A DNA stretch of 64,000 bases from assembly GCA_964513345.1 (NCBI GenBank), contig CAZELY010000002.1:13578-77577 (forward strand), in the 5' to 3' direction. The notes beneath the pieces are model-generated. The model did not search any database and was not told the DNA's origin. It worked only from the letters and a program-made list of their open reading frames with translations. Position numbers and translations under genes: made by a program. The DNA comes from an uncultured Muribaculaceae bacterium (lineage in GTDB: Bacteria; Bacillota_I; Bacilli_A; RF39; UBA660). Positions 15,452 through 35,850 of this stretch are shown piece by piece; position 1 is the first letter of the stretch, and each line of letters starts with the position of its first letter.

Positions 15452-15452
15452 G

Positions 15453-20246: not shown

Positions 20247-20248
20247 TT

Positions 20249-21562
20249 ATGCATGAGAGCATGTTTGAGCAGATTGATTTTGGCCCGTTAAAAGAGTTTT
20301 TAGAAAATGACGACATAACCGATATTTCATATGATAATGGTGGACAAATTCATTTAAAAACGTTATCTAGAGGTATTTATCGAATTGAAAAACCAGAAAT
20401 AAACAATGCTTTTATGGAAAAATTAGCCTTTCAGTGTTCAAATGTTATGGGTAAGACATTTAACATGGCTCATCCATTTCTGGATGCTGAAAGCGCAGAA
20501 CTCCGTTTAAATTTTGTTCATGATTCAATTGCTACAAATGGCATTGCATGCGTTATTCGTAAAACACCAGCCAAAATCAGATTACAAAAAGAAAAAATAA
20601 TAGCTGAAAAGTATATTGAGCCTGATATTCATGATTTCCTTGAATACTGTGTCAAAGGACACTGTAATATAATTGCTTGTGGTGAAACGGGCTCAGGTAA
20701 AACCGAATTAGTTAAATATTTGGCTTCTAAAATAGCAGAAGATGAGAAAATAATTACAATAGAAGATACATTGGAGCTTCACTTAGATAGAATTTTTCCA
20801 CACAGGGATATTGTTTCTATGAAAACTAATAATATTGCTTCGTATAGTGATGTATTAGTAACTTGTATGCGACAAAATCCGAAATGGATTTTACTATCAG
20901 AAGTTCGTAGTGCTGAAGCGGTTCTAGCCGTAAGAAATTCAATTTCTTCTGGTCACTATATCTTATCAACAATTCATGCCGATAAAGCCTCTTCAATACC
21001 AAATCGTATGTATAGTTTGCTTGAAACTAGTCAAAATATCGAACAATTTTTGAAAACAATTCATCGATATGTTCAAATTGGTATATATGTAAGAGGTTAT
21101 ACCGATAAAGCAACTCACAATTTTGTTCGTGAGATTGCCGAAGTTACCGAGTTTTATGTTGATGAAAATAATGAAGCTAAGAGTAATACTATATATAGAA
21201 AAACGGCCAATGGGACTGTTAATAGAAAAAATCCTTCTAAATATTTAGTTGATTATTTAGAAGTTCAAGGTGTGTATTTACCGAAGGAAATGCTTTTGTT
21301 AGGAGAAAATGTTCCATTATCAGAGGCTGAAGGAAAAATAAAGGAAAACAGTAATGGAAGAATTCCAATTATTGATACTTCAGCTGGAACAAAAACGTTA
21401 GAACCGGCTTCTTCACAAGTAAAGGTAGAAACTCCACAACCGCCGGTTGTAGGATCTAAACCTGAACCTAAGGTAGTACCTGAACAGCCAGTGCCAATTG
21501 TAAAAGTAGCACAACCTGTTCAGATGCCTGTAGGACAAGCTCCTATAGTAAATAATGAATAA
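20249..21562 (+). CDS. cpaF: CpaF/TadA-type secretion ATPase (VirB11/T2SE superfamily) with Pro-rich C-terminal tail
   Basis: Walker A CGETGSGKTE, Asp box ITIEDTLELHL, Walker B region RQNPKWILLSEVR and His box GHYILSTIHA. The tail is VETPQPPVVGSKPEPKVVPEQPVPIVKVAQPVQMPVGQAP. Confidence 0.8.
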   Translation: MHESMFEQIDFGPLKEFLENDDITDISYDNGGQIHLKTLSRGIYRIEKPEINNAFMEKLAFQCSNVMGKTFNMAHPFLDAESAELRLNFVHDSIATNGIACVIRKTPAKIRLQKEKIIAEKYIEPDIHDFLEYCVKGHCNIIACGETGSGKTELVKYLASKIAEDEKIITIEDTLELHLDRIFPHRDIVSMKTNNIASYSDVLVTCMRQNPKWILLSEVRSAEAVLAVRNSISSGHYILSTIHADKASSIPNRMYSLLETSQNIEQFLKTIHRYVQIGIYVRGYTDKATHNFVREIAEVTEFYVDENNEAKSNTIYRKTANGTVNRKNPSKYLVDYLEVQGVYLPKEMLLLGENVPLSEAEGKIKENSNGRIPIIDTSAGTKTLEPASSQVKVETPQPPVVGSKPEPKVVPEQPVPIVKVAQPVQMPVGQAPIVNNE

Positions 21563-21574
21563 AGGAGGGAAAAT

Positions 21575-22477
21575 ATGACATTTATAATATTTGCAATAGT
21601 TCTGGCTATTTGCATTTTCGTTGTTGTTTATCGCAGCGACAGAAAAACAAATGCTTATAAATTTATTAATGAAAAAATAACTTTTGTTTATAACAAATAT
21701 ACTCCTTATTCATTTAGAATGATAAGGGAAAAAGTTAAAGAATTGGGTCAGGAATATACCCCAAGACAATATTTTATTCAAATTGTTGTTTTTGCAGCAG
21801 GATCCGCAACAATTACATATTTATATTTCTATAGTATACCTATTTCGTTGATGTATTCAGCAGCATCAATTTTGGTAATTCCAGTATTAACTTATTGGCG
21901 CTGCAAAAGAGTATATAGTGAGTTCATATTTGAACAAATACAAGTATATACAACTAATACCATTATGGAATTTAATACAACCCAAGCGTTTGTTAAAGCT
22001 TTGGAAGGAGTTTATGAATCTAATGTCTTAGAGGATCCAGTTAAGCAAGATGTTAAGACGATGATTGATATGGCTTATGAAAACGGAACCATTGAATCAT
22101 CGATAGAATTCTTTAATGCAAAATATGATTATTATATCGTTAGAAATATGCATCAATTGTTTTTACAAATTACTAATGAAGGTTCGAGAGATTCAGGAGA
22201 AGCCTTAGAAAACATGAGCCAGGATATTGATATGCTTGTTGAAGCTGTTTATAGAGATCGTATCGATAGAGCTGGTTTCCATAAAAAGTTTTTACAATTT
22301 GGTATTGTCTTATATTTAATGGTTATGTTGGTTCAATTTTTACTTGGTGTTGAAACTTATAACCAAATGCTAGAAAGTTTATGGGTGAGGCTTTTACTTC
22401 ATGGAATTATTTTGCTAAATACATTTTTTATCCTAAATGGGGAAAAATACTATAATGAAGATGTGGGGGCGGAATAA
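21575..22477 (+). CDS. tadB: TadB-like pilus platform membrane protein (T2SSF-like)
   Basis: Topology is TM, TM pair, a soluble domain of about 110 aa, then C-terminal TMs. Its position immediately after the CpaF-type ATPase supports the call. The assignment rests on architecture and context. Confidence 0.6.
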   Translation: MTFIIFAIVLAICIFVVVYRSDRKTNAYKFINEKITFVYNKYTPYSFRMIREKVKELGQEYTPRQYFIQIVVFAAGSATITYLYFYSIPISLMYSAASILVIPVLTYWRCKRVYSEFIFEQIQVYTTNTIMEFNTTQAFVKALEGVYESNVLEDPVKQDVKTMIDMAYENGTIESSIEFFNAKYDYYIVRNMHQLFLQITNEGSRDSGEALENMSQDIDMLVEAVYRDRIDRAGFHKKFLQFGIVLYLMVMLVQFLLGVETYNQMLESLWVRLLLHGIILLNTFFILNGEKYYNEDVGAE

Positions 22478-23274
22478 TGGAAATAAGTACAGGTATGTTA
22501 TTTATATTTATTGGAATTATTGCTATTGCTATATTTGAGGCTAATAACCATTTCAATAGTAAAAAATTTGTTAATGACGCTTATCCGTATTTTAAATTTT
22601 TAATGGAAGATGATTATAAATTTTTGTTAAATGTTAAATATGGTGACGTTGATCTTAATAAAATGTTTTCAATTCGTATTAGAAATGGATTGATTGTTAT
22701 TGTGTTTGTATTTTTCTTGTTTCTATCAAGATTATCATTCTTATACATATTAGCATCAGTATTAGCTGGATTTGCGATGTTTAAATTACCATATATTCAA
22801 TTAAAAAATTTTTACAAAGCAAATTTACATCGAATAAATTTGCTGCTACCATATTATTTAAAATCACTAGAAATTTTGGCACAACACTATACAATTCCGG
22901 TGGCAATTTCAAGATCGGTTGTTACAGCACCAGATATATTCAAACCAGGCTTGGAAAGATTAATTCAAAAAATTGATGAAGGTGATTCAAGTGTTCAACC
23001 ATATATGGATTTTGCAAATGAATATCCGGTAAGAGACTCTATGAGAATGATGAGACTTCTTTATCGTTTAAGCTTAGGTAGTCAAGAGAATAAACAGGAA
23101 CAGCTGTTAACATTTTCAAGGACAATTTCGGCACTTCAAAACAAGGCTCGTGAACAAAAATATCAAGAGCGATTGGATAAGATGGAAAAGAAAACAATGA
23201 TTATGTTATTTGGAACAGGTGGAGGTATTATAGTATTTCTAATGCTTTCAATGATGCAAATGATGAACTTATAG
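22477..23274 (+). CDS. tadC: TadC-like pilus platform membrane protein (T2SSF-like)
   Basis: Same architecture as the previous gene, with an ATGA-type start/stop overlap to it. The soluble domain reads LLPYYLKSLEILAQHYTIPVAISRSV... Confidence 0.6.
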   Translation: MEISTGMLFIFIGIIAIAIFEANNHFNSKKFVNDAYPYFKFLMEDDYKFLLNVKYGDVDLNKMFSIRIRNGLIVIVFVFFLFLSRLSFLYILASVLAGFAMFKLPYIQLKNFYKANLHRINLLLPYYLKSLEILAQHYTIPVAISRSVVTAPDIFKPGLERLIQKIDEGDSSVQPYMDFANEYPVRDSMRMMRLLYRLSLGSQENKQEQLLTFSRTISALQNKAREQKYQERLDKMEKKTMIMLFGTGGGIIVFLMLSMMQMMNL

Positions 23275-23328
23275 ACAAATTAAAAAAAATAAAGTATAAT
23301 TATATATATAATAAAGGGAGGTGAGACT

Positions 23329-23511
23329 GTGAAAGAAGCTGCAGGTGAAGCTAATATGACTGTAATTACAATTGTTTTAATTGGTATCGTCTTGGCTATT
23401 GGTACAATCGTTGTTACTAATATGATGAATAGTACACAAAATAGAACTAATTGTATTAATCAAGGCAAGACATGGACAAATGGTAAATGTGTTGCTGGAG
23501 CAAATCATTAA
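23329..23511 (+). CDS. small Flp-like/type IV-like major pilin candidate (GTG start)
   Basis: 60 aa with a GGGAGGTGA RBS. The sequence MKEAAG/EANMTVITIVLIGIVLAIGTIVVTNMM is followed by a short C-terminal region with two Cys. Confidence 0.5.
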   Translation: MKEAAGEANMTVITIVLIGIVLAIGTIVVTNMMNSTQNRTNCINQGKTWTNGKCVAGANH

Positions 23512-23533
23512 TTTATTGAAAGAAGGATAGTAT

Positions 23534-24031
23534 ATGCGTCAAGGAATAGGTGCGATTGGAACATTTAATATAATAATTATTTATATAATGGTAGTTTTTG
23601 GCCTGTTAATTGGCGCTATTAACTACTATAAGGCCTATAAAATTAATTCTAGAGTTCTAGACATTATCGAAAAATATGAAGGTTATAATAGCCTTGCAGT
23701 TAGTGAAATCGATGATTTCATGGGAAGCATTGGGTATGTCCAAGGTAATAAGGGATGCGAAAATACAAGCCATGGAGCTAATCTAGTGACTAAAAAAAAT
23801 GGCGGTCATGATATGGATCAAAACTACGATTATTGTGTGTATTTTCATCCGGCTGATGGCACTAAGAAAGACATCAACGGAACAAAAACCTATTATAATT
23901 ACAGTGTAGTAACTTATATTTATATTGATTTACCAGGATTTAATCAAATGAATGGTGGCCATGGCATACCGGTTTATACTAAAGGCGAAAGGACCTATAA
24001 ATTTGGGACTAAAAACCCAGCAAGTGGTTGA
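23534..24031 (+). CDS. TadE/TadF-like pseudopilin candidate (paralog 1)
   Basis: MRQGIG/AIGTFNIIIIYIMVVFGLLIG leader and helix. It shares YxKAxKxNxR, Y[DE]YCVY and TY[IM]Y[IV]D[LF]P blocks with the next ORF. Confidence 0.5.
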   Translation: MRQGIGAIGTFNIIIIYIMVVFGLLIGAINYYKAYKINSRVLDIIEKYEGYNSLAVSEIDDFMGSIGYVQGNKGCENTSHGANLVTKKNGGHDMDQNYDYCVYFHPADGTKKDINGTKTYYNYSVVTYIYIDLPGFNQMNGGHGIPVYTKGERTYKFGTKNPASG

Positions 24032-24047
24032 TAAGGAGTGATAAAAC

Positions 24048-24560
24048 ATGAATGAAGCATTAGGGAATGCCTTACTTTTTAAATTAGCTATTGGTTTTAT
24101 TCTTATTCTGTCGGCCATTTTTTTAGGATCTTTTGCCTATTCAAAGGCCTTTAAAGTCAATAATAGAATAATTGAGGAAATAGAAAAAAATGGCGAAACA
24201 AGTGGGCGACAAACAACGACTTTAGCGAACGCACTTAGTGCCTATAATAACGATGTGGCTGCTGAAATAGAAAGATGGCTAGTTAGCGGTGACAATAATC
24301 GTGGCATTGGCTATCGAGTTAGTTCAGGCAAAGCTCATTGTAACTATGATAAACCAGGTGCAGTATTAATGGATGGTATTAACAATAATTATGAGTACTG
24401 TGTTTATCAGATTAACACTTGTCATGCTGATGGTTCAAAAGAACGCTGCGGAGTTTATTATCACGTTATTACATATATGTATGTTGATTTTCCGCTGTTG
24501 GAGTTGTTTTTAATACCAGTGCATGGTGAAACAAGAACATTTGAAGTTTTAAATAGTTAA
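24048..24560 (+). CDS. TadE/TadF-like pseudopilin candidate (paralog 2)
   Basis: MNEALG/NALLFKLAIGFILILSAIFLG leader and helix. It is a paralog of 23534..24031. Confidence 0.5.
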   Translation: MNEALGNALLFKLAIGFILILSAIFLGSFAYSKAFKVNNRIIEEIEKNGETSGRQTTTLANALSAYNNDVAAEIERWLVSGDNNRGIGYRVSSGKAHCNYDKPGAVLMDGINNNYEYCVYQINTCHADGSKERCGVYYHVITYMYVDFPLLELFLIPVHGETRTFEVLNS

Positions 24561-24571
24561 GGAGGTGCTAA

Positions 24572-25573
24572 ATGAACGTAATTGTTGCTAATAAATATCG
24601 CGATGCTCTAGCGACTTTAGACATCGACGTTATTAAAAAATTAGATGGTGAATTCACTGTCGAAGAAATCATTGAATCATTCAAAAATTTCTTCTTTCAA
24701 AGAATGATTTTGGATGTTACCGCTTTGAAAGATTATAAGGATATTAAAACAATTCAAAAACTTTCTTTAGCGTTAGATATGGATAGACTTATATTACTTT
24801 TAGATGGCTCTCCTGAAGTAACAAATCCAGAATATTTATCAGACTTAATATCAATGCGAATATATAATTTTACGATGAATGTTGAAGGAGTTATGTATTT
24901 ATACAATAATCCTAACAGTTATCGTGATGTTGCCCAATATCACCAATTGGATACTTATCACGATGTTAATGCACCAGTTGCCCCAGCTCCAACAATGGAA
25001 TTTGGTTCTAATTCTTGCAGAGTTATTGGAATTAAAAACATTACTGATGGTGCCGGAGCTACAACATTAACTTACATTATGAAAAAGCAATTAGAAAGAA
25101 ATTATTCAGTTGTTGCTTTAGAAATAGGCAAGCGTGATTTTGTTTATTTCGGTGATGAAAAAATGTATAGTATTACTGATGGTGAACTTGGCAACAATAT
25201 TTCAAAATATAATTCAAATGATGTTATTTTGGTAGATATCAATAATAGTATTTCTGCTGAAGGATTAGTTGATGACATGTTATATTTGGTAGAACCCTCA
25301 AAGATAAAACTAAATAAACTTTTATCTAAAAATATGAATGCTTTTACTAAATATAAAAACAAGAAAATTGTTTTAAACAAGAGTCTACTAAACAAACAAG
25401 ATGTAATGGATTTTGAATATGAAACTAAAACGACGACGTTTTATAATGTTCCACCATTATATGATCAAGAAAACTCCAATAGTAGCCTTGATAAGTTGTT
25501 GTCTAAATTAGGCTTTGCTAAACAAAGCGATGAGAATCCTTCAGATAAAAAAGGATTATTTGGAAAACTATAA
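24572..25573 (+). CDS. tadZ: TadZ/CpaE-like protein (pseudo-receiver plus degenerate ParA/MinD ATPase domain)
   Basis: The C-terminal half follows the ParA/MinD layout, but the P-loop reads GIKNITDGAGATTLT with no Walker Lys. The N-terminal ~130 aa are receiver-like. It is the last gene of the Tad-like operon. Confidence 0.55.
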   Translation: MNVIVANKYRDALATLDIDVIKKLDGEFTVEEIIESFKNFFFQRMILDVTALKDYKDIKTIQKLSLALDMDRLILLLDGSPEVTNPEYLSDLISMRIYNFTMNVEGVMYLYNNPNSYRDVAQYHQLDTYHDVNAPVAPAPTMEFGSNSCRVIGIKNITDGAGATTLTYIMKKQLERNYSVVALEIGKRDFVYFGDEKMYSITDGELGNNISKYNSNDVILVDINNSISAEGLVDDMLYLVEPSKIKLNKLLSKNMNAFTKYKNKKIVLNKSLLNKQDVMDFEYETKTTTFYNVPPLYDQENSNSSLDKLLSKLGFAKQSDENPSDKKGLFGKL

Positions 25574-25632: not shown

Positions 25633-25661
25633 TTGACAAAAAACCATTTTTAAAGTATCAT
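25633..25661 (+). promoter_or_regulatory. putative promoter of the T4SS module
   Basis: TTGACA (25633-25638), a 17-nt spacer, then TATCAT (25656-25661). Confidence 0.5.
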
Positions 25662-25688: not shown

Positions 25689-26081
25689 ATGGGATTAATT
25701 AACATATTAGAAGACATCAGTTGTAGTATGGGAGGAACTGATTCAATTACAATACCTGGCGGTGTTGCTGGAATAATTCATTTTATTATTTTAGTTATCC
25801 AAGTTGCTGTTCCTATCATGCTTATTATTTGGGGAATGATTGATTTTGCCAAATCTACAATCGGTGGTAGTGAAGATGACATTAAGAAAGGGCAAAAAGT
25901 ATTTGTAAAAAGACTTATCGCAGCTATTATTGTTTTCTTAATTATTACTGTTACACAATTAATTATCACAACTGTTGGTACTGCTACTAAAGATGAAGGC
26001 GGAACTAGTGATGCTGGAAATGCTTGGAAATGTGCTTGTAAAATAATTAAGAATAACAATACTGCTTGTGAAAAATATTAA
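25689..26081 (+). CDS. VirB2/TrbC-like T4SS pilin-like hairpin protein (short form 1)
   Basis: I prefer the ATG at 25689, preceded by GGAGAAGGAGGAAG. There are two hydrophobic helices around a charged loop: IIHFIILVIQVAVPIMLIIWGMIDFAKSTIGGSEDDIKKGQKVFVKRLIAAIIVFLIITV. Confidence 0.55.
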   Translation: MGLINILEDISCSMGGTDSITIPGGVAGIIHFIILVIQVAVPIMLIIWGMIDFAKSTIGGSEDDIKKGQKVFVKRLIAAIIVFLIITVTQLIITTVGTATKDEGGTSDAGNAWKCACKIIKNNNTACEKY

Positions 26082-26098
26082 AGAAAGAAGGAATATAA

Positions 26099-26500
26099 AT
26101 GCTTAATATATTAGATACAGCTAACACAACAATTTGTGCTGGTATAGAAGTGCCAGACGAATTATTTAATTTAGTTGCAACTATTATTAGAATAATCAAA
26201 ATTGTTGTTCCAATACTTTTAATTATTTGGGGAATGATTGATTTTGCTAAATCAATTGTAGCTAAAAAAGAAGATGATATAAAAGCTTATCGTAAAGCAT
26301 TTATATCTCGATTAATTTCAGCTGTTTTAGTATTTTTAGTAATAACTATTGTTCAACTTACAGTAGGCTTAGTATCCGGAGTTGAAAAGCAGTCACATAT
26401 TGAAGGTCAAACCACTGGTGATATTTGGGCATGCAGTAAGAAATTCATCAATGGTGTTGCTACTGAAGATAAAAAAGACACTGAAGAAACATCAAATTAA
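26099..26500 (+). CDS. VirB2/TrbC-like T4SS pilin-like hairpin protein (short form 2)
   Basis: Paralog of the previous ORF: IIKIVVPILLIIWGMIDFAKSIVAKKEDDIKAYRKAFISRLISAVLVFLVITI. Confidence 0.55.
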   Translation: MLNILDTANTTICAGIEVPDELFNLVATIIRIIKIVVPILLIIWGMIDFAKSIVAKKEDDIKAYRKAFISRLISAVLVFLVITIVQLTVGLVSGVEKQSHIEGQTTGDIWACSKKFINGVATEDKKDTEETSN

Positions 26501-26537
26501 CGAAAGGGGCAATAAATTATTTATTGCTTTCTTTTTT

Positions 26538-26548
26538 TATGGTATAAT
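26538..26548 (+). promoter_or_regulatory. extended -10 promoter of cassette A
   Basis: TATGGTATAAT (TGnTATAAT) lies directly after the hairpin and T-run that follow 26099..26500. Confidence 0.5.
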
Positions 26549-26582
26549 GTGCATAGTTGAAGTATGCTAGAGGAGTGGTATT

Positions 26583-27644
26583 GTGAATAGTAAATTAAAA
26601 AAAATGTTATTTACAAGTATAATATTGTTTTTCGGTATGTTTTTTGCAAACATCAATTTAGCATATGCGGAAGATGTTTGTGATGGTACTAATCCTAATG
26701 ATGTTTGCGACGGGGACGGTCATGGATTTGCCAAGTGTATATATGATTTCGAAAGTGTTTATGAGGATTCAGGAAGCCCTACAAATGGAGATAGTTCCTA
26801 TGAGTTAAGTGACTATGCCAAATATTATAGGCCTTATAGAATAGGCATGGTTGTTTATAAAAAAAATGATGGTCACTTTTATGGCTGGGGTGACATTGGC
26901 TGTGGTGCATGGGAAAAAGAAACTGATGAATATCATTATTCTGACACTGTTACAGGCACGTGTTTTATAGATAACTATAATAGTAATTTTACTAATTTTG
27001 ATGGTGGCACCTGGGAAAATTTTGTATCTAATGGTGATAAGGATAACCCTAAATGGACTTGCCCAGACAAAATATATATAGATATGGATAAAGCAGCAAA
27101 CGACCATCTTTCTATGCACTTTGTGAAATCAGCATGCACTAACGGAGTATGTCAATATGAGGTTTTATTATCAAATAATTTGAGCCAGCAAAATGGCCAA
27201 CCAGGGCAATTAAATGTTAGTGGTAAAAAAAGAGAAGGTAAAGATGATGGTTATGGAAGAGCGATTGATTATAAAAATGGAAAAAGTGAAACAAATTCTA
27301 ACTCAAAATATGATATAACCATTCCTTCAATTATAGCGGCATTTGCGGATCCATTGAAGGCGTATAAAGCCTCAAAAGGTGATGTGGATTGCGGTTTGAT
27401 TCCCGATTCCATCATGATAATTGTTAACAATGCAATTTTAATACTACAAGTTGTTGGTATTTTAGCGTTAGTTATTTTAACAATTATTGAATTTGTTAAA
27501 GTAATAACTACTGCCGAAGAAGATGGCTTAAAAGGCGCAATAAAAAACACCTTTAGAAGAATAATAATGGTAATTTTATTATTAATAGTTAGGCCGATAA
27601 TTATTTGGATTTTAGCTTTAATAAATTTGAGAAGTTGTATGTAA
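26583..27644 (+). CDS. secreted variable-ectodomain protein fused to a VirB2-like C-terminal hairpin (cassette A; GTG start)
   Basis: Signal peptide ...ANINLAYA/ED and a Cys-containing unique ectodomain of about 240 aa. The conserved module DCGLIPDSIMIIVNNAILILQVVGILALVILTIIEFVKVITTAEEDGLKGAIKNTFRRIIMVILLLIVRPIIIWILALINLRSCM follows. Confidence 0.65.
   Translation: MNSKLKKMLFTSIILFFGMFFANINLAYAEDVCDGTNPNDVCDGDGHGFAKCIYDFESVYEDSGSPTNGDSSYELSDYAKYYRPYRIGMVVYKKNDGHFYGWGDIGCGAWEKETDEYHYSDTVTGTCFIDNYNSNFTNFDGGTWENFVSNGDKDNPKWTCPDKIYIDMDKAANDHLSMHFVKSACTNGVCQYEVLLSNNLSQQNGQPGQLNVSGKKREGKDDGYGRAIDYKNGKSETNSNSKYDITIPSIIAAFADPLKAYKASKGDVDCGLIPDSIMIIVNNAILILQVVGILALVILTIIEFVKVITTAEEDGLKGAIKNTFRRIIMVILLLIVRPIIIWILALINLRSCM
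27387..27644 (+). repeat. conserved 3-prime module, copy A (most divergent)
   Basis: Encodes DCGLIPDS...RSCM and aligns by eye with 28469..28726 and 29304..29561. Confidence 0.8.
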
Positions 27645-27690
27645 AAATTTATGGATGAAAATAATAAAGCATTTATTATTTTCTTTTTTT

Positions 27691-27701
27691 TATGATATAA
27701 T
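27691..27701 (+). promoter_or_regulatory. extended -10 promoter of cassette B
   Basis: TATGATATAAT. The surrounding 27-nt stretch CTTTTTTTTATGATATAATATATTTGT is identical to the one upstream of cassette C. Confidence 0.55.
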
Positions 27702-27733
27702 ATATTTGTTGAGATTTACAGAGGAGTGATACT

Positions 27734-28726
27734 ATGAATAGCAAGACGTTAAAGACATTGTTTATGTGTTTAGTATTATTTTTTAGTATATTCTTTATCA
27801 ATACCGGCCACATTATAGCCGATTCTGGAGGTACTGGAATGGCAGATGATACGGCTAGAAATAAAGGAACCGATAGAAATAAAACCAATAATTCTGGCGA
27901 AACTACTACGACGTCTGATGCCCATGGGTCAACAAATAGTGGGGTTTGTTACTATGAGTGGAACGTTGATGGTGACCCATATTTATTACAAATAACGTTT
28001 ATGAAATCATCTCAGAGTTATAAATCCTTTAAGGCGGTTACAAAATTTGAAAACAAAAAAACAAAATCAGCCGCAAAAATCACCAATTTTAGTGATATTT
28101 TTTCTGCTTACAATATTGGTGCCCATTGGGTTCCATATTTAACGAATGCTGGAACCGGCGGCGATTGTTTAACTGATGCATTATACAAAAAAGATACTGG
28201 AGGCTGTGGAAGTATAACCTGGAATTGTCCGGACAGTGTATTCTATAAATATGAAGGGGACAATAAGTTTAGCTTACATTATACAGAAAAAGAAGGGTAT
28301 ACAAATGGCGATTGGACATCTGAATATAAGGCATCTGACGAGGCTAAAGATATATATGGTAATGATGAAGATTGGGATCAAACGGAAGATGAAAAATCCA
28401 AAGCTGGCTGGGATATAAATATATCCGATATCGCCTTTGATGATTATTCTCAGAATGCTGGCGACAAGGATTGTGGTCTAATCCCCAATTCAATAATTAA
28501 ATTTTTGAACAATTTATTTTTAATTATTCAAGTGATAGGCATTTTATTATTAGTTGTTTTAACGATAGTAGAATTTGTCAAAGTAATAACCACGGCAGCT
28601 GAAGATGGTTTAGGTGGAGCAATTAAAAACACTTTCAGAAGAATAATAATGGTTATCTTATTGTTGATAATTAGACCTTTGATTATATGGATATTAGGTT
28701 TAATAAGCGTTCGAAGTTGCATGTGA
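27734..28726 (+). CDS. secreted variable-ectodomain protein fused to a VirB2-like C-terminal hairpin (cassette B)
   Basis: Signal peptide MNSKTLKTLFMCLVLFFSIFFINTGHIIA, a unique ectodomain, and the conserved C-terminal module from DCGLIPNSII to RSCM. Confidence 0.65.
   Translation: MNSKTLKTLFMCLVLFFSIFFINTGHIIADSGGTGMADDTARNKGTDRNKTNNSGETTTTSDAHGSTNSGVCYYEWNVDGDPYLLQITFMKSSQSYKSFKAVTKFENKKTKSAAKITNFSDIFSAYNIGAHWVPYLTNAGTGGDCLTDALYKKDTGGCGSITWNCPDSVFYKYEGDNKFSLHYTEKEGYTNGDWTSEYKASDEAKDIYGNDEDWDQTEDEKSKAGWDINISDIAFDDYSQNAGDKDCGLIPNSIIKFLNNLFLIIQVIGILLLVVLTIVEFVKVITTAAEDGLGGAIKNTFRRIIMVILLLIIRPLIIWILGLISVRSCM
28469..28726 (+). repeat. conserved 3-prime module, copy B
   Basis: Positions 28491-28637 match 29326-29472 with a single mismatch by eye. 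Many synonymous and non-synonymous differences appear after that point. Confidence 0.85.
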
Positions 28727-28785
28727 AAAACAACAATAAATTTCTTGCTAAAAAAAGGCAATAAAACTTTAATATTGCTTTTTTT

Positions 28786-28796
28786 TATGATATAAT
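28786..28796 (+). promoter_or_regulatory. extended -10 promoter of cassette C
   Basis: TATGATATAAT preceded by a hairpin and T-run. It sits in the same 27-nt context as cassette B. Confidence 0.55.
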
Positions 28797-28832
28797 ATAT
28801 TTGTAAAAAAGTATACTAGGAGAGTGTGTCCT

Positions 28833-29561
28833 ATGCATAAGAAAAACATAAAACTATTGATTGTGGGTTTTTTATTGGTTTTCGGGACTTTTTTTGTGAA
28901 TTTTGATAGTGTTAGTGCCGAAAAATGCACTTCCTATGGTAACAAAACTGAAGCTATATGTGAATCACATCAAGAAAATGGATATATGTGTAAATGGAAT
29001 TCTAGCGCAAAAGGTGGCGGACGATGCAAAAAGAGTCGCCAACCTGCACCTGCACTTAAGGAATCAGTGAAAAGTTGCACTGAAATTAAATCATCAAATG
29101 TTTGTAGCAACAGCATAGTTGATGGAAAAGAATGCATTTGGAGACAAGGAGCCTGCTATGCGACTGAAGATGATGGGACTGACAAAACTATTATTGCTGG
29201 TAGTCGTGAAGAGAGACATAGTGAAGAAGTTAAATTGGATAGCATTACGATAGACCAAATAACGACGGCATATAGTGTCACAGATGCAGATCCCGGTGAT
29301 ACGGATTGCGGTTTAATTCCCGATTCAATAATTAAATTTTTGAACAATTTATTTTTAATTATTCAAGTAATAGGCATTTTATTATTAGTTGTTTTAACGA
29401 TAGTAGAATTTGTCAAAGTAATAACCACGGCAGCTGAAGATGGTTTAGGTGGAGCAATTAAAAACACTTTTAGAAGAATTATTATGGTCGTTTTACTATT
29501 AATACTTCGACCGTTAATCATGTGGATACTTAATTTAATAGATTTAAGTGACTGTATGTAA
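28833..29561 (+). CDS. secreted variable-ectodomain protein fused to a VirB2-like C-terminal hairpin (cassette C)
   Basis: I prefer the ATG at 28833 (GGAG RBS) over the track start at 28824. Signal peptide ...NFDSVSA/EK, a short Cys-rich unique ectodomain, and the conserved C-terminal module ending SDCM. Confidence 0.65.
   Translation: MHKKNIKLLIVGFLLVFGTFFVNFDSVSAEKCTSYGNKTEAICESHQENGYMCKWNSSAKGGGRCKKSRQPAPALKESVKSCTEIKSSNVCSNSIVDGKECIWRQGACYATEDDGTDKTIIAGSREERHSEEVKLDSITIDQITTAYSVTDADPGDTDCGLIPDSIIKFLNNLFLIIQVIGILLLVVLTIVEFVKVITTAAEDGLGGAIKNTFRRIIMVVLLLILRPLIMWILNLIDLSDCM
29304..29561 (+). repeat. conserved 3-prime module, copy C
   Basis: See copy B. Confidence 0.85.
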
Positions 29562-29578: not shown

Positions 29579-31807
29579 ATGGCATTATTATGGGAAGCTC
29601 TTAGACAGGTAGCATTTCTTTTAGATAAAGTTGCGTATGGGTTTATACCTGCCGTTTACGAGTTGATATTCTATTTGGCAAATGTAAATCTAGCAAATCA
29701 AGATATTTTTGTAGCAATTATTGAGAGAATATATCTTTTGCTTGGTATTTTTATGCTATTTAGAGTTAGTTTTTCAATATTACAATATATTGTTGATCCT
29801 GGTTCATTTAGTGATAAATCTAAAGGATTTGGTAAATTGGTTACTAATACATTAGTAGTAATTATTCTTTTGGCAGCAACACCATGGATATTTAGTACAG
29901 CTTACGATTTGCAAAACAAAATAATAATGAGTAACGTTATACCAAGATTAATACTGGGTGATACCAGTTATGTTGATAATTCCGGTATGACAGCTGATAG
30001 TATTAATAAGGATGCAATCAAAGATCAACAAGCTAGCGTTCATTCGATGGCTGTAGATCTTCAGTTCGCTATATATGGCGCTTTCTTCACGTTAAATGTC
30101 GATCCTGGCAATAAAGCTGGCTATGAAGATACTTTATGTGATCCAAAGAAACTTGAAAAGGACGGAACTCCACATCCAAATGCAAATGCCTTTGGTTCAA
30201 AAGATATGGTTGATTCTGGATGTTTAGGCGAGATAGAAGAAGATCTATCAAAGGAATTAACTAGTCATGGTGCTAAATTGAGTGGCTTATACAAATATTA
30301 TGATGCCGATGATGAAGATAGCAATAGTGAAGGAATAGTGGATCACCGTGATTTTAATACATTTGGTAGTTTGCTATGGTGGCGAAAAAATGGAGGCGAT
30401 GGGCTTTCAGATTTTACAATTAATTATATGCCAATTGTTTCAGCATTTGTTGGAATATATTTATTGTTTTTATTAATAGCATTTGCTATTGATATTGCTG
30501 TTCGTGTATTCAAACTTATGTTTTTACAAGCAGTTGCCCCAATAGCTATAGTATCTTATATAGATCCAAAAGAAAGTGCTTCGAACGGAAGACTTCATAA
30601 TTGGGGAATGGAATGCTTAAGGACATATTTTTCATTGTTCTTACGACTTGCAATCATTTATTTGGCGATATTCCTAGTAAAATTATTAATATCAGTGTTT
30701 ATTGATACAGCACTAGAAGGACAATCAACTATGTACTACAATGGAATAGCACCAGAAGGAAATTTAAATATATTTGTATTTATCATGTTAGTTCTTGGTA
30801 TATTCACATTTGCTAAAAAAGTTCCACAAATGATTGAAGGTATCTTTGGAATCAAGATGAGTGGTGAATTAAGTTTAAATCCATTAAAAGCAATAGGGGG
30901 TAATGCTGGTGTAAAATTAGGATTGGGTGCCGCTGGAATTGCTGCTACGGGAGTCGCAGCCGGTCTTGGAACCGCAGCAGCATCTGCATATAAAGCTAAA
31001 CATGATTTAGGTCAGACAGCTCCTCGTGCGGCATTGAGTGCTTTAGGTGGTATGTTTGTTGGTGCCGGAAGAGGTGTAGTTGGTGGAGTGAAAGGTAAAG
31101 GTAAATTTTCTATGTCAGCAGTTCAAAATTCGGCAGGACGCTCAATGCGTAACATGGATGTAAGAAGCAAAACTCAAGGATGGTCCGGTGCACCAGCTAG
31201 AGTAGCAGATAGAGTTCGTTATTCAATTGGTGCCGCAAGTGATTATGAAACTCTAGAACTGAATGCATCTATGCATGATAATACCGCTGCTAAATTTAAA
31301 GCAGTTCAAGATAGAGTAAGTAGTGAAGTAGCTACAACTGGTGCTGGCAAATATCTTGCTGAATATCGAAAACGAGCTGATAAAATGGCTGCGGAAGGAC
31401 GTATTGATGATGCAATGGAAATGAGGAGACAGGCAGACGCTGCTGAAAGAGCACTGCGTGATGAGTATATTAGCTATAATGGACGATATTTTAATGCTGA
31501 TGCAATAACTAATGGAACCTTTAATGCTGATGGAACGTTTACACTTAAAGGCTCATATGATTACGACAAAGATGGAAATGATTTGGTACTACAAACAGCA
31601 AAACAAGCTGCCAGTGTAGCATATAAAGAAAGTACACACAATGATCTTGATGCAACCGCATTCATCACTTATAAAAGCGCCGGTGATGTTAAGAAGTCTG
31701 CTGAGCAGGAAGCAGCTGGAATTCGTTCAACCAGAGAATATAATGATGCTAAAGACCGACACGAAAATATTCAAGCACAAGCTAAACAAGGACATATTAA
31801 AAGATAA
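29579..31807 (+). CDS. VirB6/TrbL-like polytopic T4SS channel protein with Gly/Ala-rich segment and coiled-coil tail
   Basis: 742 aa with at least 6 TM helices and a large loop after TM3. It has the segment GGNAGVKLGLGAAGIAATGVAAGLGTAAASAY and a charged C-terminal tail. It lies between the pilin-like genes and VirB3/VirB4. The assignment rests on architecture and context. Confidence 0.6.
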   Translation: MALLWEALRQVAFLLDKVAYGFIPAVYELIFYLANVNLANQDIFVAIIERIYLLLGIFMLFRVSFSILQYIVDPGSFSDKSKGFGKLVTNTLVVIILLAATPWIFSTAYDLQNKIIMSNVIPRLILGDTSYVDNSGMTADSINKDAIKDQQASVHSMAVDLQFAIYGAFFTLNVDPGNKAGYEDTLCDPKKLEKDGTPHPNANAFGSKDMVDSGCLGEIEEDLSKELTSHGAKLSGLYKYYDADDEDSNSEGIVDHRDFNTFGSLLWWRKNGGDGLSDFTINYMPIVSAFVGIYLLFLLIAFAIDIAVRVFKLMFLQAVAPIAIVSYIDPKESASNGRLHNWGMECLRTYFSLFLRLAIIYLAIFLVKLLISVFIDTALEGQSTMYYNGIAPEGNLNIFVFIMLVLGIFTFAKKVPQMIEGIFGIKMSGELSLNPLKAIGGNAGVKLGLGAAGIAATGVAAGLGTAAASAYKAKHDLGQTAPRAALSALGGMFVGAGRGVVGGVKGKGKFSMSAVQNSAGRSMRNMDVRSKTQGWSGAPARVADRVRYSIGAASDYETLELNASMHDNTAAKFKAVQDRVSSEVATTGAGKYLAEYRKRADKMAAEGRIDDAMEMRRQADAAERALRDEYISYNGRYFNADAITNGTFNADGTFTLKGSYDYDKDGNDLVLQTAKQAASVAYKESTHNDLDATAFITYKSAGDVKKSAEQEAAGIRSTREYNDAKDRHENIQAQAKQGHIKR

Positions 31808-31824: not shown

Positions 31825-32139
31825 ATGGACTATTTAATACCGGCAAACTCGAAGAAATCTTTACTGATTTTTGGGTTATTTACGGAATTTGACTTAATAT
31901 TATTTGGTACGGGAGTGGGAGCAACAATATTATTATTGCTGCTCATTAGTCCGTCCACACTGCTGGGTGCAGTCATTGATTTAGCCCCTGGCTTAATCAC
32001 AGGATTTTTGGTATTACCGATACCAAATTATCACAATTCATTAACACTAATAAAAGAAGTATATACATTTTATACAAGAAGGCAAAGATTTGTATGGAAA
32101 GGGTGGTGCGTGAAAGATGGCTTCAAAGACACAAAATAG
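31825..32139 (+). CDS. PrgI/VirB3-like small T4SS membrane protein
   Basis: 104 aa. MDYLIPANSKKSLLIFGLFTEFDLILFGTGVGATILLLLL plus a second TM helix. It lies directly upstream of VirB4. Confidence 0.55.
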   Translation: MDYLIPANSKKSLLIFGLFTEFDLILFGTGVGATILLLLLISPSTLLGAVIDLAPGLITGFLVLPIPNYHNSLTLIKEVYTFYTRRQRFVWKGWCVKDGFKDTK

Positions 32140-32668
32140 AAGTAAATACACTAGCGATTTTGTTCCGGTAAAAGCAATAACAAACGGAATGATAATTTTA
32201 GATAATAATGAGAAGGTAACAGGAGTAAAAATATTTCCAAGAAACATTGGTATATTAGAAGCTGATTTACAATATTCAATTATTAATAATTTAAGAAATG
32301 TTTATAACATGATTGATTATGAATTTTGGATAATTGCGGCTGATCGACCTGTTGATATTACGGCTTACCTATCACAATTACAACTTCTTTATAATTCGCA
32401 GCAAAATCCAATTAAAAGAAAATTAATCGTTGAGGATATAGAAAAAGCAAATATGTTTACAAATAATAATGTTGTTGATACTGAATTTTACTTGTTATTT
32501 AAAGATACAGATCCAGAAAGAATTAATAAAAGAATAAGAAATTTAATTCAATCTTTTGCAGCAGCTGGATTAAATACAAAACAAACATCAAATGAAGATT
32601 TAAGAGTTATTTTGGATAATTTCTTAAACGGTGGACAAACTACTAAATTTGGGGCGGTGATGAGCTAA
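32117..32668 (+). CDS. VirB4 N-terminal domain encoded as a separate ORF
   Basis: 183 aa. SDFVPVKAITNGMIILDNNEKVTGVKIFPRNIGIL... resembles the N-terminus of Firmicute VirB4/TraE-type ATPases. Its stop overlaps the next ATG (TAATG). Confidence 0.55.
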   Translation: MASKTQNRSKYTSDFVPVKAITNGMIILDNNEKVTGVKIFPRNIGILEADLQYSIINNLRNVYNMIDYEFWIIAADRPVDITAYLSQLQLLYNSQQNPIKRKLIVEDIEKANMFTNNNVVDTEFYLLFKDTDPERINKRIRNLIQSFAAAGLNTKQTSNEDLRVILDNFLNGGQTTKFGAVMS

Positions 32669-34452
32669 TGGATATAAAGTCACAAATTGCTCCTAAGGGG
32701 CTAGAATTTAGACCAAGTGAATTTGTTGTATCTGATAAGTATGCGACAATTTTAACTGCTATATCTTATCCTAAATATGTTCCAGTTGGATTTTTATCTA
32801 ACTTAACAAGTATGAGTGGTATCAAAATGGTAATTAAACATATACCAATGCAATTTGATGTTATTACAAAAATGATTAATAAAGAAGTTGCTGATTTAAA
32901 AATGCGTTATCAAGAAGAACACGATATTACTATTCAAGAACGTATTCGTCAGGACTATGAATCTTTAGAACAATTTATTAAGCAATTAGCAGCTTCACAA
33001 ACAAAAATATATGACTTTCAATTACATGTCATGATTACAGCTGATTCTATGGATGAGCTTACAAGTAAAAAATTACAATTAAAAGGTTATTTGGAAGCTA
33101 TGGATATTAGAGCGATCCCTCTTCGTTTTGAGCAGGAAAAAGTTCTAAAATCAATGTTACCAATTTTCCCTAAACAAGATATCGAAGATCGAATTGGTAC
33201 GCCGATTCCAGCTTCGACTATTGCGGCAACTTATCCATTTGTATTTGACAGTATCAAAGACCCAGGGTTATCTACGTTATTAGGTGTAGACTTTTCTGGA
33301 GGAGTTGTATTATTTAACCAATTCTTATATCAAATACAAAAGGAACATAATCGTAACAACGCTAATATGATTATTTTAGGTACGTCTGGTTCTGGTAAAT
33401 CAACAGCAGCTAAATTGATGGTTAGATCACATATTAGAAATGATCATCAAATAGTTATTATCGATCCAGAAGGCGAATTTGAAGATATGACTAGATTATA
33501 TGGTGGAGATTATATCGACCTTGGAAAAGGTGGAGAATTTGGTATGATCAATCCATTAGAAGTTATTGTCGATGCCGATGAAGAAGAAATTAAGCAAGGT
33601 CAAGGATATGCTGTTTTAACAAGAACATTACAAACAATTAAAGCCTTTATGAAATATTATGATCCATCTATTACTGAAGATGTATTAAATGTCTTTAGTG
33701 AAATGGTTCAAGAAACATATCGAAGATTTGGCGTGGATTTTGAAACAGATTTTACTAAACTTAAATCACAAGATTATCCAACATTTAAAGACGTTTATGC
33801 AACAGTTAAAGGTAAAATCACAGCTATGCCAGATCAAAATAAAGAACGCGATATTTTAGAACAGCTTGAATTAAAATTAAGACCAATAATTAAAGAATTA
33901 AGATATTATTTTGATGGAACAACAACGATTTCACCAAAGAGTAATTTTATAGTGTTCAATATTAAAGAATTAATGAATGCTGATTTAAATATTAGAAATG
34001 CACTTTTCTTTAATACATTGAAATATTCATGGAGTTTAACATTAAATCCTAGTATTAATACAGTACTTATGGTAGATGAGGCTCACGTACTACTTTCAGG
34101 AAACAATACTTTAGGTGCTGATTTCTTGGCACAAGTTCAAAGACGTGCACGTAAGTACAATACAGGAACAATTATTATTACACAACAACCAACAGATTTT
34201 AGTGATCCAAAAGTTATTACGCAAGGTAAAGCGATTTTTGATAACTCTTCATATTATCTTGTTATGGGACTTAGGAAACAAGCTGTTGAGGATTTAAGTA
34301 AATTAATTGATTTAAATGATAACGAAAGAGAAAATATTAAACAATTTACACAAGGTGAAGCATTATTTGTCTGCGGCAGCAAACGTATGACAATTAATGT
34401 TCAAGTTACCGAACAAGAACTAGATTCCTTCGGAAGTGGAGGCGGACTATAA
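32668..34452 (+). CDS. virB4: VirB4-like T4SS ATPase (ATPase core)
   Basis: Walker A GTSGSGKST and Walker B VLMVDEAH, plus the arginine-rich region RRARKYNTGTIIITQQPTDF. 594 aa. Confidence 0.8.
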   Translation: MDIKSQIAPKGLEFRPSEFVVSDKYATILTAISYPKYVPVGFLSNLTSMSGIKMVIKHIPMQFDVITKMINKEVADLKMRYQEEHDITIQERIRQDYESLEQFIKQLAASQTKIYDFQLHVMITADSMDELTSKKLQLKGYLEAMDIRAIPLRFEQEKVLKSMLPIFPKQDIEDRIGTPIPASTIAATYPFVFDSIKDPGLSTLLGVDFSGGVVLFNQFLYQIQKEHNRNNANMIILGTSGSGKSTAAKLMVRSHIRNDHQIVIIDPEGEFEDMTRLYGGDYIDLGKGGEFGMINPLEVIVDADEEEIKQGQGYAVLTRTLQTIKAFMKYYDPSITEDVLNVFSEMVQETYRRFGVDFETDFTKLKSQDYPTFKDVYATVKGKITAMPDQNKERDILEQLELKLRPIIKELRYYFDGTTTISPKSNFIVFNIKELMNADLNIRNALFFNTLKYSWSLTLNPSINTVLMVDEAHVLLSGNNTLGADFLAQVQRRARKYNTGTIIITQQPTDFSDPKVITQGKAIFDNSSYYLVMGLRKQAVEDLSKLIDLNDNERENIKQFTQGEALFVCGSKRMTINVQVTEQELDSFGSGGGL

Positions 34453-35143: not shown

Positions 35144-35158
35144 AATGGGGTGTCTTAT

Positions 35159-35836
35159 ATGAAACGAATATTTTTAATAGCACTTTTGTTTGTTATTACA
35201 GGATGCACTGTTGATTATGATTTAAATATTGATAGTGATTATATAGATGAAAAAGCAAATATCAATTTATTGGATGATGATTTTTCTGATTCCGCTGAAG
35301 TTGAAGAACAGTTAGATTACAAAAAAAGAGTTTATAATGATAATAATTTTTATTACAACAACAAAGTATTAGCAACAGCTGATGGTTATGAGGCTACATA
35401 TAGTTACAAGCATGACGTTGATAACTATGGTCAATCGTCATTTGTTGAAAAATGCTATGGCCAAAAAACTATTACAACTACAGATGATTTAATTAAGATA
35501 AATACTAATCCAGTATTCTATTGTCTAATTATGGAAGATGGATTTTATGCTGATGCAGTAGATATAAATATTACTACGCAATTAAAAGTTCAAGACCATA
35601 ATGCTGATGAAGTAATTGGCAATACATATAAATGGCACATTGATGAAAGCAATTATCAAAACAAACCAATAAACATGGTTTTGAAAAAAGATAAAACGGC
35701 ACAAGAAATTGCACAAAATATTGTTGATAAAATACCAAATAAAGAAATAATATATGTTTGTTTATTTATATTGCTAATGACAGTAATTATTTATGTGTTT
35801 GTAAAGCATAGACAAAAAATTAAGAATGAAATTTAA
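35159..35836 (+). CDS. lipoprotein with C-terminal TM, unknown function
   Basis: I prefer the ATG at 35159. Lipobox MKRIFLIALLFVITG/C and a C-terminal helix IIYVCLFILLMTVIIYVFV. Confidence 0.55.
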   Translation: MKRIFLIALLFVITGCTVDYDLNIDSDYIDEKANINLLDDDFSDSAEVEEQLDYKKRVYNDNNFYYNNKVLATADGYEATYSYKHDVDNYGQSSFVEKCYGQKTITTTDDLIKINTNPVFYCLIMEDGFYADAVDINITTQLKVQDHNADEVIGNTYKWHIDESNYQNKPINMVLKKDKTAQEIAQNIVDKIPNKEIIYVCLFILLMTVIIYVFVKHRQKIKNEI

Positions 35837-35850
35837 AGGCGGTGATAAAA

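Follow-up and report, generated by a model that had tools for sequence, protein, structure and literature searches.

A tandem array of candidate pilin-like hairpin proteins, three of them with secreted heads, beside the type IV secretion genes of an RF39-order gut bacterium

What is the function of five related genes that stand in tandem directly in front of the genes of a type IV secretion system (T4SS)? The question is raised by positions 25689-29561 of the window, that is, the whole stretch of 64,000 nucleotides analysed here (contig CAZELY010000002.1 of GenBank assembly GCA_964513345.1, positions 13,578 to 77,577), which derives from an uncultured member of RF39, a widespread gut lineage with small genomes and many auxotrophies. 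The five open reading frames (ORFs), here termed P1 to P5, follow each other on the plus strand as a preliminary description of the sequence had them, and their position immediately upstream of a VirB6-like (29579), a VirB3-like (31825) and a VirB4 gene (32117 and 32668) likewise agrees with that description. On balance, the five genes probably encode a pilin-like subunit set of a chromosomal T4SS in a single-membrane RF39-order gut Bacillus. The features of the array are as follows.

25689-26081, plus strand: P1 (short1), 130 amino acids (aa) from the ATG preferred by gene callers
26099-26500, plus strand: P2 (short2), 133 aa, the best-conserved member of the array
26583-27644, plus strand: P3, a long "headed" hairpin protein, 353 aa
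26583-26672, plus strand: signal peptide of P3
26673-27251, plus strand: predicted beta-rich head of P3
27252-27386, plus strand: predicted disordered linker of P3
27387-27641, plus strand: hairpin of P3, including Cys270 and Cys352
27734-28726, plus strand: P4, a long headed hairpin protein, 330 aa, with its hairpin at 28469-28723
28824-29561, plus strand: P5, a long headed hairpin protein, 245 aa from a GTG, with its hairpin at 29304-29558

One two-helix hairpin in five proteins

The ORF list and an alignment of the five proteins agree with the earlier claim that a common two-helix pattern runs through two short (130 and 133 aa) and three long proteins. Helix 1, [DE]F[AV]K, E[DE][DG], a Lys, R[LI]I and helix 2 are found in all five, and the hairpin residues P, L, F, K, E, D, K, R and I together with the C-terminal Cys are invariant. 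P2 matches P4 in BLASTP over 76 residues without a gap (E 2e-4), a profile of the short proteins (P1/P2 homologues) aligns in hhalign to a profile of the long-protein hairpins at 98.1% (E 1e-13) compared to 35% for a reversed-sequence control, and the hairpin DNA of P3, P4 and P5 constitutes a 251-nt repeat of 74-88% identity. As the BLASTP match, the profile match above the reversed control and the shared DNA repeat all point the same way, the similarity is not a generic effect of membrane helices, and P1-P5 are, as judged from these comparisons, built on a common and homologous hairpin of two helices, of the type of T4SS_pilin in Pfam. Among the hairpins of P3-P5 the synonymous divergence (dS) is 0.5-1.6 and the ratio of nonsynonymous to synonymous divergence (dN/dS) 0.09-0.15, for which reason they appear to be old duplicates under purifying selection. 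The junction DCGLIP[DN]SI and the endings RSCM, RSCM and SDCM, reported previously for P3-P5, are present, and so are the three signal peptides, which are of the Sec type and end in AYA, IIA and VSA in P3, P4 and P5, respectively.

The two short proteins have no signal peptide. In P1 a 25-aa outer N-terminal tail with one Cys is followed by helix 1, the charged loop, helix 2 and an outer C-terminal tail with three Cys, the conserved one among them; its orthologue is the first array gene in 39 loci. Two hydrophobic segments are found in 221 of the 228 family matches from all fetched loci. In an AlphaFold2 model of P3 the helices span residues 275-309 and 314-352, with a predicted local distance difference test score (pLDDT) of 85-91, which fits the form of the T4SS_pilin family (PF18895), about 70 residues with two transmembrane helices and a short loop. 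Given the signal peptides in front of the heads, the K/R-rich loop and the Big_2 domains that follow helix 2 in some relatives (see below), the hairpin would have both termini outside and its charged loop in the cytoplasm. The same observations, together with the genomic context, support the earlier view of a conserved hairpin module in a T4SS setting with its variable parts facing outward.

The family to which the hairpin belongs was examined with profile searches. P2 scores 24.5 bits against PF18895 (E 2.9e-5; gathering cut-off 26.6 bits), and P1, P3, P4 and P5 have no match at E <= 1. Among the relatives, PF18895 is found in 76 of 81 short homologues at E <= 0.01, in one long orthologue (L038, 432 aa) at residues 352-419 with 28.5 bits, which is over the cut-off, and in a plasmid-encoded 791-aa protein at residues 718-777 with 19.3 bits. 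The VirB2/TrbC family (PF04956) matches neither the five proteins at E <= 1 nor the 81 homologues at E <= 0.01, and Maff2 (PF12750) was not detected in either set. The VirB2-like label given to the hairpin in the preliminary description hence stands for T4SS_pilin, at borderline scores, and falls for TrbC/VirB2: borderline T4SS_pilin membership is supported by the profile scores, homology to VirB2 proper is not demonstrated, and it is position, topology and precedent that would make the hairpin work like VirB2. With regard to the features of the VirB2-like class, a gene beside virB6/virB3/virB4 is found in the window, in 38 bounded loci and on two plasmids, and P1 and P2 fit the small two-helix form with a K/R-rich loop and short outer tails by their sequence; P3-P5 keep the hairpin and the presumed topology but carry a head of 130-240 aa and are not small. 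A prepilin leader with a single N-terminal helix, as in Tad/Flp pilins and pseudopilins, is absent from the sequences of P1-P5. The P3-type head is predicted to be beta-rich and not a helical bundle of the VirB5 type. Searches of Pfam and NCBIfam yielded no toxin domain or immunity gene for P1-P5 and no toxin, enzyme or immunity family for the heads of P3-P5.

In every class of the family the hairpin is flanked by two Cys, the first a short distance ahead of helix 1 and the second past helix 2. The 39 short1 and the 39 short2 orthologues retain these two residues without exception (100%), and 216 of the 221 hairpin proteins of the fetched loci have both; the five exceptions comprise two intact proteins that lack both, two ORFs truncated at one end and one likely false match. 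In the antiparallel hairpin the two positions fall at the same outer end, and this location, together with the joint conservation and joint loss of the two residues, suggests a disulfide, which may link them inside one subunit or join two subunits. The Cys-Met ending itself was considered as a conserved processing signal and rejected, being limited to the window genome and its close relatives. Orthologues have 20-25 extra residues of the form G.V.IG.DG..FC before the C-terminal Cys and variable tails after it, the Cys alone being conserved. No conserved C-terminal processing site like that of the cyclic T-pilin and P-pilin was found in the orthologue alignments, and no cyclase or TraF-like gene was recognised in the window.

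Divergent heads and a conserved gene order

The heads of the three long proteins had been described as mutually unrelated, which is true of P5 only, while P3 and P4 share one family. A weak match is found between the heads of P3 and P4 (E 0.001), and a profile of long-gene heads from other genomes recognises P3 (E 1.6e-11) and P4 (E 6e-9) but not P5 (E 1.8). This head family is very divergent and has at least 140 members. At E <= 1e-3 a profile of the long proteins retrieves 4896 representatives, a number that falls to 122 cluster representatives at E <= 1e-30; the best 150 matches are nearly all 280-400 aa long and aligned from the signal peptide to the hairpin. In 140 long proteins C270, R326 and C352 (P3 numbering) are invariant and C52, Y54 and C160 nearly so. 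The AlphaFold2 model of P3 was based on a 140-sequence alignment, replacing an earlier poor run on 10 sequences (pLDDT 46), and has a mean pLDDT of 78, with about 90 for a beta-rich head and less than 50 for a linker, residues 224-268, that is predicted to be disordered. According to this model a long protein consists of a signal peptide, a folded beta-rich domain, a disordered linker and the hairpin. The fold check proposed for the heads hence gave a confident beta-rich fold for P3 and no significant structural relative: when the full P3 model was compared by Foldseek with the PDB and a viral structure library, nothing was returned at E < 0.001, RAD52 and LptE being best at E ~0.2, which leaves the P3-type head without a known fold relative.

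The head of P5 (28914-29180) consists of two Cys-rich repeats of the form C-x(6-10)-C-x(6-10)-GY.C.W-x(3-10)-C. The same type of head is found in one relative (P0142, E 7e-37), with three repeats and Ser/Thr-rich linkers between them, and the repeat has no family match except a weak one to Paramecium surface antigen. Across 29 orthologues the heads have a mean pairwise identity of 17% and 46% indel positions, compared to 48% and 1% for the hairpin. The turnover of ectodomains on a conserved hairpin that was expected at the outset is consequently seen; these sequences indicate that purifying selection acts on the hairpin, with a head that evolves rapidly and differs in copy number.

Five relatives of 606-799 aa (P0156, P0160, P0167, P0180 and P0182) have extra extracellular domains beyond helix 2. 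These are two Big_2 immunoglobulin (Ig)-like domains C-terminal to helix 2 in P0167 and unassigned domains in the other four. As such relatives continue into domains past helix 2, cargo appears attachable at either end of the hairpin.

A search of a public protein collection with the hairpin profile retrieved 643 proteins, the top ones being short proteins of uncultured gut Bacilli or "Tenericutes", and in addition 43 species-level genome loci. Two of these are named Firmicutes bacterium CAG:822 and Candidatus Coprosoma, names that correspond to family CAG-822 of the GTDB order RF39 (PMC8035907). The array is part of a 28-kb island (13179-41641) that is syntenic in approximately 25-31 of the 43 loci. 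Identity to the window amounts to 84-90% for VirB4, about 80% for CpaF, 63-79% for short2, about 48% for short1, 35-45% for the VirB6-like protein and 26-46% for the long proteins. The composition of the array was determined in 38 loci of RF39-order gut Bacilli bounded by the TadZ-like and the VirB6-like genes (s, short; L, long).

ssL: 22 of 38 loci
sL: 5 of 38
ss: 4 of 38
ssLL: 3 of 38
ssLLL (this window): 1 of 38, the largest array seen, with three long copies
sssL: 1 of 38
s: 1 of 38
LLssL: 1 of 38

Many species share the gene order short, short, long(s), VirB6-like, VirB3-like, VirB4. Between species the long gene is present in 0-3 copies, in line with the expectation that the locus does not hold a single invariant copy. 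As a genome usually has a single long gene, the set of interchangeable adhesins proposed at first does not hold in general. A scan for VirD4 identified 80 further loci, with a rhodanese gene after VirD4 in 46 and RmuC in 44 of them. As the order VirD4-rhodanese-RmuC is kept in 44-46 of these 80 loci, the island occupies a fixed chromosomal site and, on present sequence comparisons, has the look of a chromosomal T4SS passed on vertically and not of an integrative and conjugative element (ICE). No relaxase or integrase was found in the searched regions of the window, its island and the VirD4 loci, and the MobP3 relaxase of plasmid pBMB67 had no match in BLAST and phmmer searches of all fetched loci and the window.

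Related gene sets are also found on two conjugative-type plasmids. Plasmid pBMB67 of Bacillus thuringiensis carries genes for a relaxase, VirD4, a two-helix protein with a signal peptide, TrbL, PrgI, a split VirB4 and Tad-like proteins. A 98-kb Mycoplasmatota plasmid from a cold seep (CP074574.1, here L044) encodes, at 3640-6439, a 112-aa hairpin protein and the 791-aa protein mentioned above, in which a signal peptide, an ectodomain and the hairpin follow each other. The pair is located upstream of VirB6, VirB3 and a split VirB4, Tad-like genes are present as well, and neither of the two proteins has the Cys pair. The presence of this 791-aa headed protein implies that the headed form is not confined to the sampled RF39-like genomes; a tblastn search of 72,556 plasmids with P2 gave no match. 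More than 30 species have the Tad set in synteny with the T4SS, and on both plasmids Tad-like genes lie near VirB4, namely those for a SAF-domain protein and an AAA ATPase and, on one of them, for CpaF and a TadB/C-like protein. This synteny and the co-occurrence on plasmids suggest that the Tad and T4SS machines work together.

Pilin subunits, anchors or effectors

If P1-P5 are pilin-like subunits, their hairpins would span the membrane with the charged loop on the cytoplasmic side and both ends facing outward, and the T4SS would pull them out of it and onto the VirB6-like protein as a platform, by analogy with proposals for VirB2 and PrgF. P1 and P2 would build a conduit or a short pilus through the wall, and we infer that P1-P5 together form a pilus in which a long protein would co-assemble via the same hairpin, its head contacting the target cell at the outside or the tip and thereby filling a VirB5-like role not found in Gram-positive systems. 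A disulfide of the Cys pair would close the outer end of the hairpin by a chemistry other than the head-to-tail cyclisation known from TrbC and VirB2, and three long paralogues with different heads may widen or vary the target range. The T4SS as a whole may act in conjugation, in uptake or, as has been suggested for Patescibacteria, in contact-dependent exchange.

To our knowledge, the T4SSs of single-membrane bacteria were until 2025 said to lack pilins. VirB2-like arrays in such bacteria are known by now, and the closest precedent is found in Patescibacteria, where PF18895 is among the profiles by which VirB2-like pilins and their arrays have been identified (PMC12102498). In a 2025 review Patescibacteria are called unique among single-membrane bacteria for their VirB2-like pilin arrays and conjugative pilus potential, and their pilin array is reported to be essential (PMC12857230). 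The arrays of Southlakia epibionticum ML1 and TM7x resemble that of the window in their borderline PF18895 scores and in their tandem, divergent two-helix proteins beside VirB6/VirB3/VirB4. Further likenesses are a single membrane, an MPF-FATA-like T4SS located on the chromosome, a reduced genome, no relaxase nearby and the presence of a type IV filament system too. The host of the window is by contrast of the Bacillota lineage RF39, and the arrays of Patescibacteria are described as small pilins, with no mention of a fused ectodomain in the literature consulted; the Cys pair and the short-short-long order are features of the window family, found here.

A second precedent, described in a preprint of December 2025, is PrgF of plasmid pCF10, a small two-helix protein encoded upstream of PrgH (VirB6), which is essential for conjugation, behaves as a lumen-lining pilus subunit and, according to labelling, is extruded from the membrane; small two-helix VirB2-like proteins beside virB6 are predicted in 95% of representative Gram-positive conjugative plasmids (bioRxiv 10.64898/2025.12.18.695078). 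That survey covered proteins of 50-150 aa only and found no VirB5-like tip (bioRxiv 10.64898/2025.12.18.695078). With this size limit, headed forms would escape it. The window proteins share with the PrgF type the two helices, the short charged loop with an acidic pair and basic residues, and the location just upstream of virB6/virB3/virB4, and for the PrgF type assembly on a VirB6 pentamer has been proposed. They differ in that no sequence similarity is detectable, PrgF leaning to Maff2 and not to T4SS_pilin, and in that PrgF-type proteins act in plasmid conjugation with relaxases, whereas the window system occupies a fixed chromosomal site with no relaxase found.

Compared to VirB2/TrbC (PF04956), the likeness consists in a two-helix hairpin whose ends both lie outside, presumably so in the window family; in mature VirB2/TrbC the two ends are joined there, and a Cys-Cys disulfide would by analogy give the same closed topology. 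VirB2/TrbC proteins are, however, trimmed and cyclised head to tail by a peptide bond, whereas the window family, for which no homology to them was found by sequence or profile, would have a putative disulfide instead. VirB5-type tip adhesins (VirB5, TraC, CagL) are alike in the proposed role only, as minor components at the filament end or outside that bind the target; they are separate soluble helical proteins and not pilin fusions, whereas the head here is predicted to be beta-rich and has no structural match. In modular type IV pilins such as PilB and PilC of Streptococcus sanguinis, a polymerising module is fused to an adhesive or otherwise functional domain and encoded beside plain pilins. 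These belong to a different filament superfamily, with the functional module C-terminal to a single N-terminal helix that has a prepilin leader, while in the window long proteins the head is N-terminal to a two-helix hairpin and preceded by a Sec-type signal peptide.

A number of results weigh against a pilin function. No window protein reaches the gathering score of PF18895. In hhalign the short and long hairpin profiles gave 0.1-0.8% against 120 VirB2 sequences, equal to reversed controls, with a comparison set drawn from the Agrobacterium/Rhizobium clade only and an alignment seeded with a VirB2 sequence of Ti-plasmid type that is 98% identical to a real one. Three hairpin hidden Markov models (HMMs) scored PrgF, the 126-aa two-helix protein of pBMB67 and VirB2 no better than reversed sequences, and only the hairpins of the Mycoplasmatota plasmid beat the reversed controls (11-13 vs 2 bits). 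The Mycoplasma pilin-like model NF045849 (Mbov_0395) has no match among the five proteins, and two profiles (A2 and A6) found nothing meaningful among PDB sequences. Foldseek returned no VirB2-type pilins, a helical hairpin being a poor Foldseek query. A domain of 130-240 aa on every subunit might be unsuited to a helical pilus lattice. Some bounded arrays (ss and s) hold no detectable long gene, and the head is accordingly not obligatory. Moreover, the host organisms are gut anaerobes, which bears on the proposed disulfide.

These points give room to a rival explanation that is the less probable one and still the most serious, according to which the hairpin is a membrane anchor and T4SS docking module without any pilus, the short proteins being channel or accessory subunits and the long ones tethered adhesins or wall-spanning scaffolds beside the VirB6-like protein. 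The hairpin has no sequence link to any pilin shown to polymerise, and electron microscopy has so far shown no conjugative pilus on Gram-positive cells (bioRxiv 10.64898/2025.12.18.695078). The disordered linker of P3 (residues 224-268) would suit a tether through the wall, and the large enzyme-like or Ig-like domains after helix 2 in relatives are bulky for a lattice subunit. What speaks for pilins instead is that the two short paralogues are strongly conserved (63-79% identity in short2) and have conserved outer tails, in which they resemble lattice subunits more than simple anchors, that position and topology equal those of PrgF-type proteins, whose labelling supports membrane extrusion, and that T4SS_pilin proteins are read as pilins in Patescibacteria.

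Two other explanations have a much lower probability. The array sits between Tad-like genes (19173-25573) and T4SS genes, and Tad and T4SS clusters are always together, plasmids included, so that P1-P5 could belong to the adjacent Tad-like (type IVc) pilus, for instance as pseudopilins or accessory proteins. This we consider very unlikely, as the Tad cluster already has its own Flp-like and TadE-like genes, the hairpin of P1-P5 makes up the C-terminus or the whole protein in place of a leader-bearing, N-terminal single helix, T4SS_pilin matches occur in the family, and both plasmids have their Tad genes on the other side of VirB4 with the hairpin genes still adjoining VirB6. Equally, the combination of a variable, fast-diverging head with a conserved module, in tandem paralogues that each have their own promoter-like element, recalls polymorphic antagonism, in which the long proteins would be secreted or displayed effectors or toxins with a membrane-insertion tail and the short ones immunity-like partners. 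Hardly any probability remains for this, given that no head belongs to a toxin, enzyme or immunity family, that one head family with conserved Cys and CP motifs extends across species in place of shuffled toxin domains, that the short proteins are homologous to the tail of the long ones and not to immunity proteins, and that the array has a fixed short-short-long order and stands where a T4SS has its pilin genes.

A bolder picture can be drawn for RF39, which we put forward as speculative and rather doubtful as a whole: a vertically inherited T4SS, apparently without a relaxase and in one island with a Tad-like pilus, would make a filament of disulfide-stapled VirB2-like pilins, capped or decorated by headed pilins whose fast-evolving heads pick the partner cell, as a Bacillota counterpart of the essential T4SS of Patescibacteria. 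If so, a contact-dependent and possibly epibiotic or DNA- or nutrient-acquiring lifestyle of a common human gut lineage would be indicated, and single-membrane T4SSs would have their missing tip or adhesin in the headed pilin. The layout suggests how such machines may choose target cells: with the T4SS_pilin hairpin as the C-terminal module of a large, fast-evolving secreted family, the headed proteins are concrete candidates for target recognition. The nearly universal Cys pair outside the hairpin offers a testable alternative to pilin cyclisation. A Tad-plus-T4SS island at a fixed site in relatives including RF39 (CAG-822) parallels the essential Patescibacteria T4SS and may inform on lifestyle. 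The heads are furthermore obvious surface antigens and strain markers, and the family offers modellers a natural case in which to examine if a VirB2-type lattice can carry bulky cargo. Apparently new, with no description found in the literature searched, are the headed T4SS_pilin hairpin, the Cys pair at its flanks and, in RF39-related genomes, a core Tad-plus-T4SS island; a literature search on secretion or pili of RF39 gave nothing specific.

The island and the regulatory elements of the array

The island lies between NrdD/NrdG and rhodanese/HTH/RmuC. Its first part contains two large proteins without a family match together with a 211-aa ORF, DUF5411, the Tad-like set and the five hairpin genes; the rest consists of the VirB6-like, VirB3/PrgI-like and split VirB4 genes, NlpC/P60, proteins without a family match and VirD4. 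The sets that flank the array are the following.

19173-25573: Tad-like (type IVc) pilus set, with RcpC/SAF, CpaF, TadB/C-like, Flp-like, two TadE-like and TadZ-like genes
29579-31807, plus strand: VirB6-like polytopic membrane protein, 742 aa, the presumed assembly platform
31825-32139, plus strand: VirB3/PrgI-like protein, 104 aa, with a weak match to Pfam PF26592 (PrgI_like)
32117-34452, plus strand: VirB4 as two translationally coupled ORFs, NCBIfam VirB4_plasma at E 2e-15 and 1e-104; PF26593 (TraC-like)

Within the Tad set the Flp-like gene is at 23329, the TadE-like genes at 23534 and 24048 and the TadZ-like gene, named from a reading of its sequence, at 24572. The VirB6-like protein matches the NCBIfam conjugal transfer family MMCAP2_0566 below its cut-off (E 3.9e-7), and its gene is placed between the pilin-like genes and the VirB3-like gene in 29 loci. 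The VirB3/PrgI-like protein has a mean identity of 67% across 25 loci. VirB4 is divided into an N domain (32117-32668, 183 aa) and an ATPase (32668-34452, 594 aa) in different frames with a TAATG stop/start overlap. A frameshift pseudogene was rejected as an explanation: all related loci and the plasmids pBMB67 and CP074574 have VirB4 divided in this way, which is therefore its normal form in a T4SS of this type.

The gene order pilin, membrane protein, ATPase had been likened to that of Mycoplasma ICEs, and it agrees with the NCBIfam names Mbov_0395 (pilin-like), 0396 (membrane protein) and 0397 (ATPase). VirB4 is closest to the Mycoplasma ICE model of NCBIfam (E 1e-104, below cut-off), and the models NF045889 (Mbov_0396) and NF045848 (MMCAP2_0566) reach 9-18 bits against cut-offs of 70 and 90. 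The Mycoplasma ICEs differ in being mobile elements, the window locus not being obviously mobile.

Several proteins of the island are without a family assignment. Those at 13179-14783 (534 aa) and 15420-18725 (1101 aa) have no Pfam or NCBIfam match, the latter being kept in 27 related loci with about 34% identity. After NlpC/P60, the region 35150-37833 encodes a 228-aa lipoprotein-like protein, with a signal peptide ending in ITGC and a C-terminal membrane helix, and a 663-aa secreted protein; both are without a family match and kept in 15-18 loci, and the 663-aa protein, with a weak match to Peptidase_C39, may be a second wall hydrolase. Directly upstream of VirD4, a 259-aa protein (38532-39311) has a single N-terminal membrane helix that matches the Mycoplasma pilin-like model Mbov_0395 weakly (19 bits, cut-off 40). 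This protein is a possible VirB8-like component, for which no other candidate was recognised.

Ahead of P1 a promoter-like TTGACA-17-TATCAT is found at 25633-25661, and an alternative start of P1 at 25626 was rejected, as gene callers and this promoter-like site favour 25689. For P5 an ATG at 28833 would give a protein of 242 aa, the version used by gene callers. Small minus-strand ORFs within the array region have no support and were disregarded. Each long gene of the window has its own AT-rich element in front, combining a stem-loop, a T-run and an extended -10 box.

about 26506-26548 (approximate), plus strand: AT-rich stem-loop and T-run, then an extended -10 box (TGGTATAAT), upstream of P3, read from the sequence
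27660-27709, plus strand: stem-loop and T-run, then TGATATAAT, upstream of P4; holds copy 1 of a 30-nt repeat (27680-27709)
28745-28804, plus strand: stem-loop and T-run, then TGATATAAT, upstream of P5; holds copy 2 of the 30-nt repeat (28775-28804)

The two copies of the 30-nt repeat (D4) are 97% identical, and the element upstream of P5 contains a promoter-like TTAATA-16-TATAAT with TG. An Rfam scan of the whole window gave RNase P and tmRNA only, with no match inside the array. The window is chromosomal, containing RNase P, RecA, RNase Y, NrdD/G, RmuC, RNase R, SmpB, tmRNA, PolC and PolA. The class B RNA of RNase P (2198-2534), the tmRNA with SmpB (46659-47017) and a sortase beside an AgI/II-C2-like surface protein (5189-8005) are ordinary features of a walled Bacillota chromosome.

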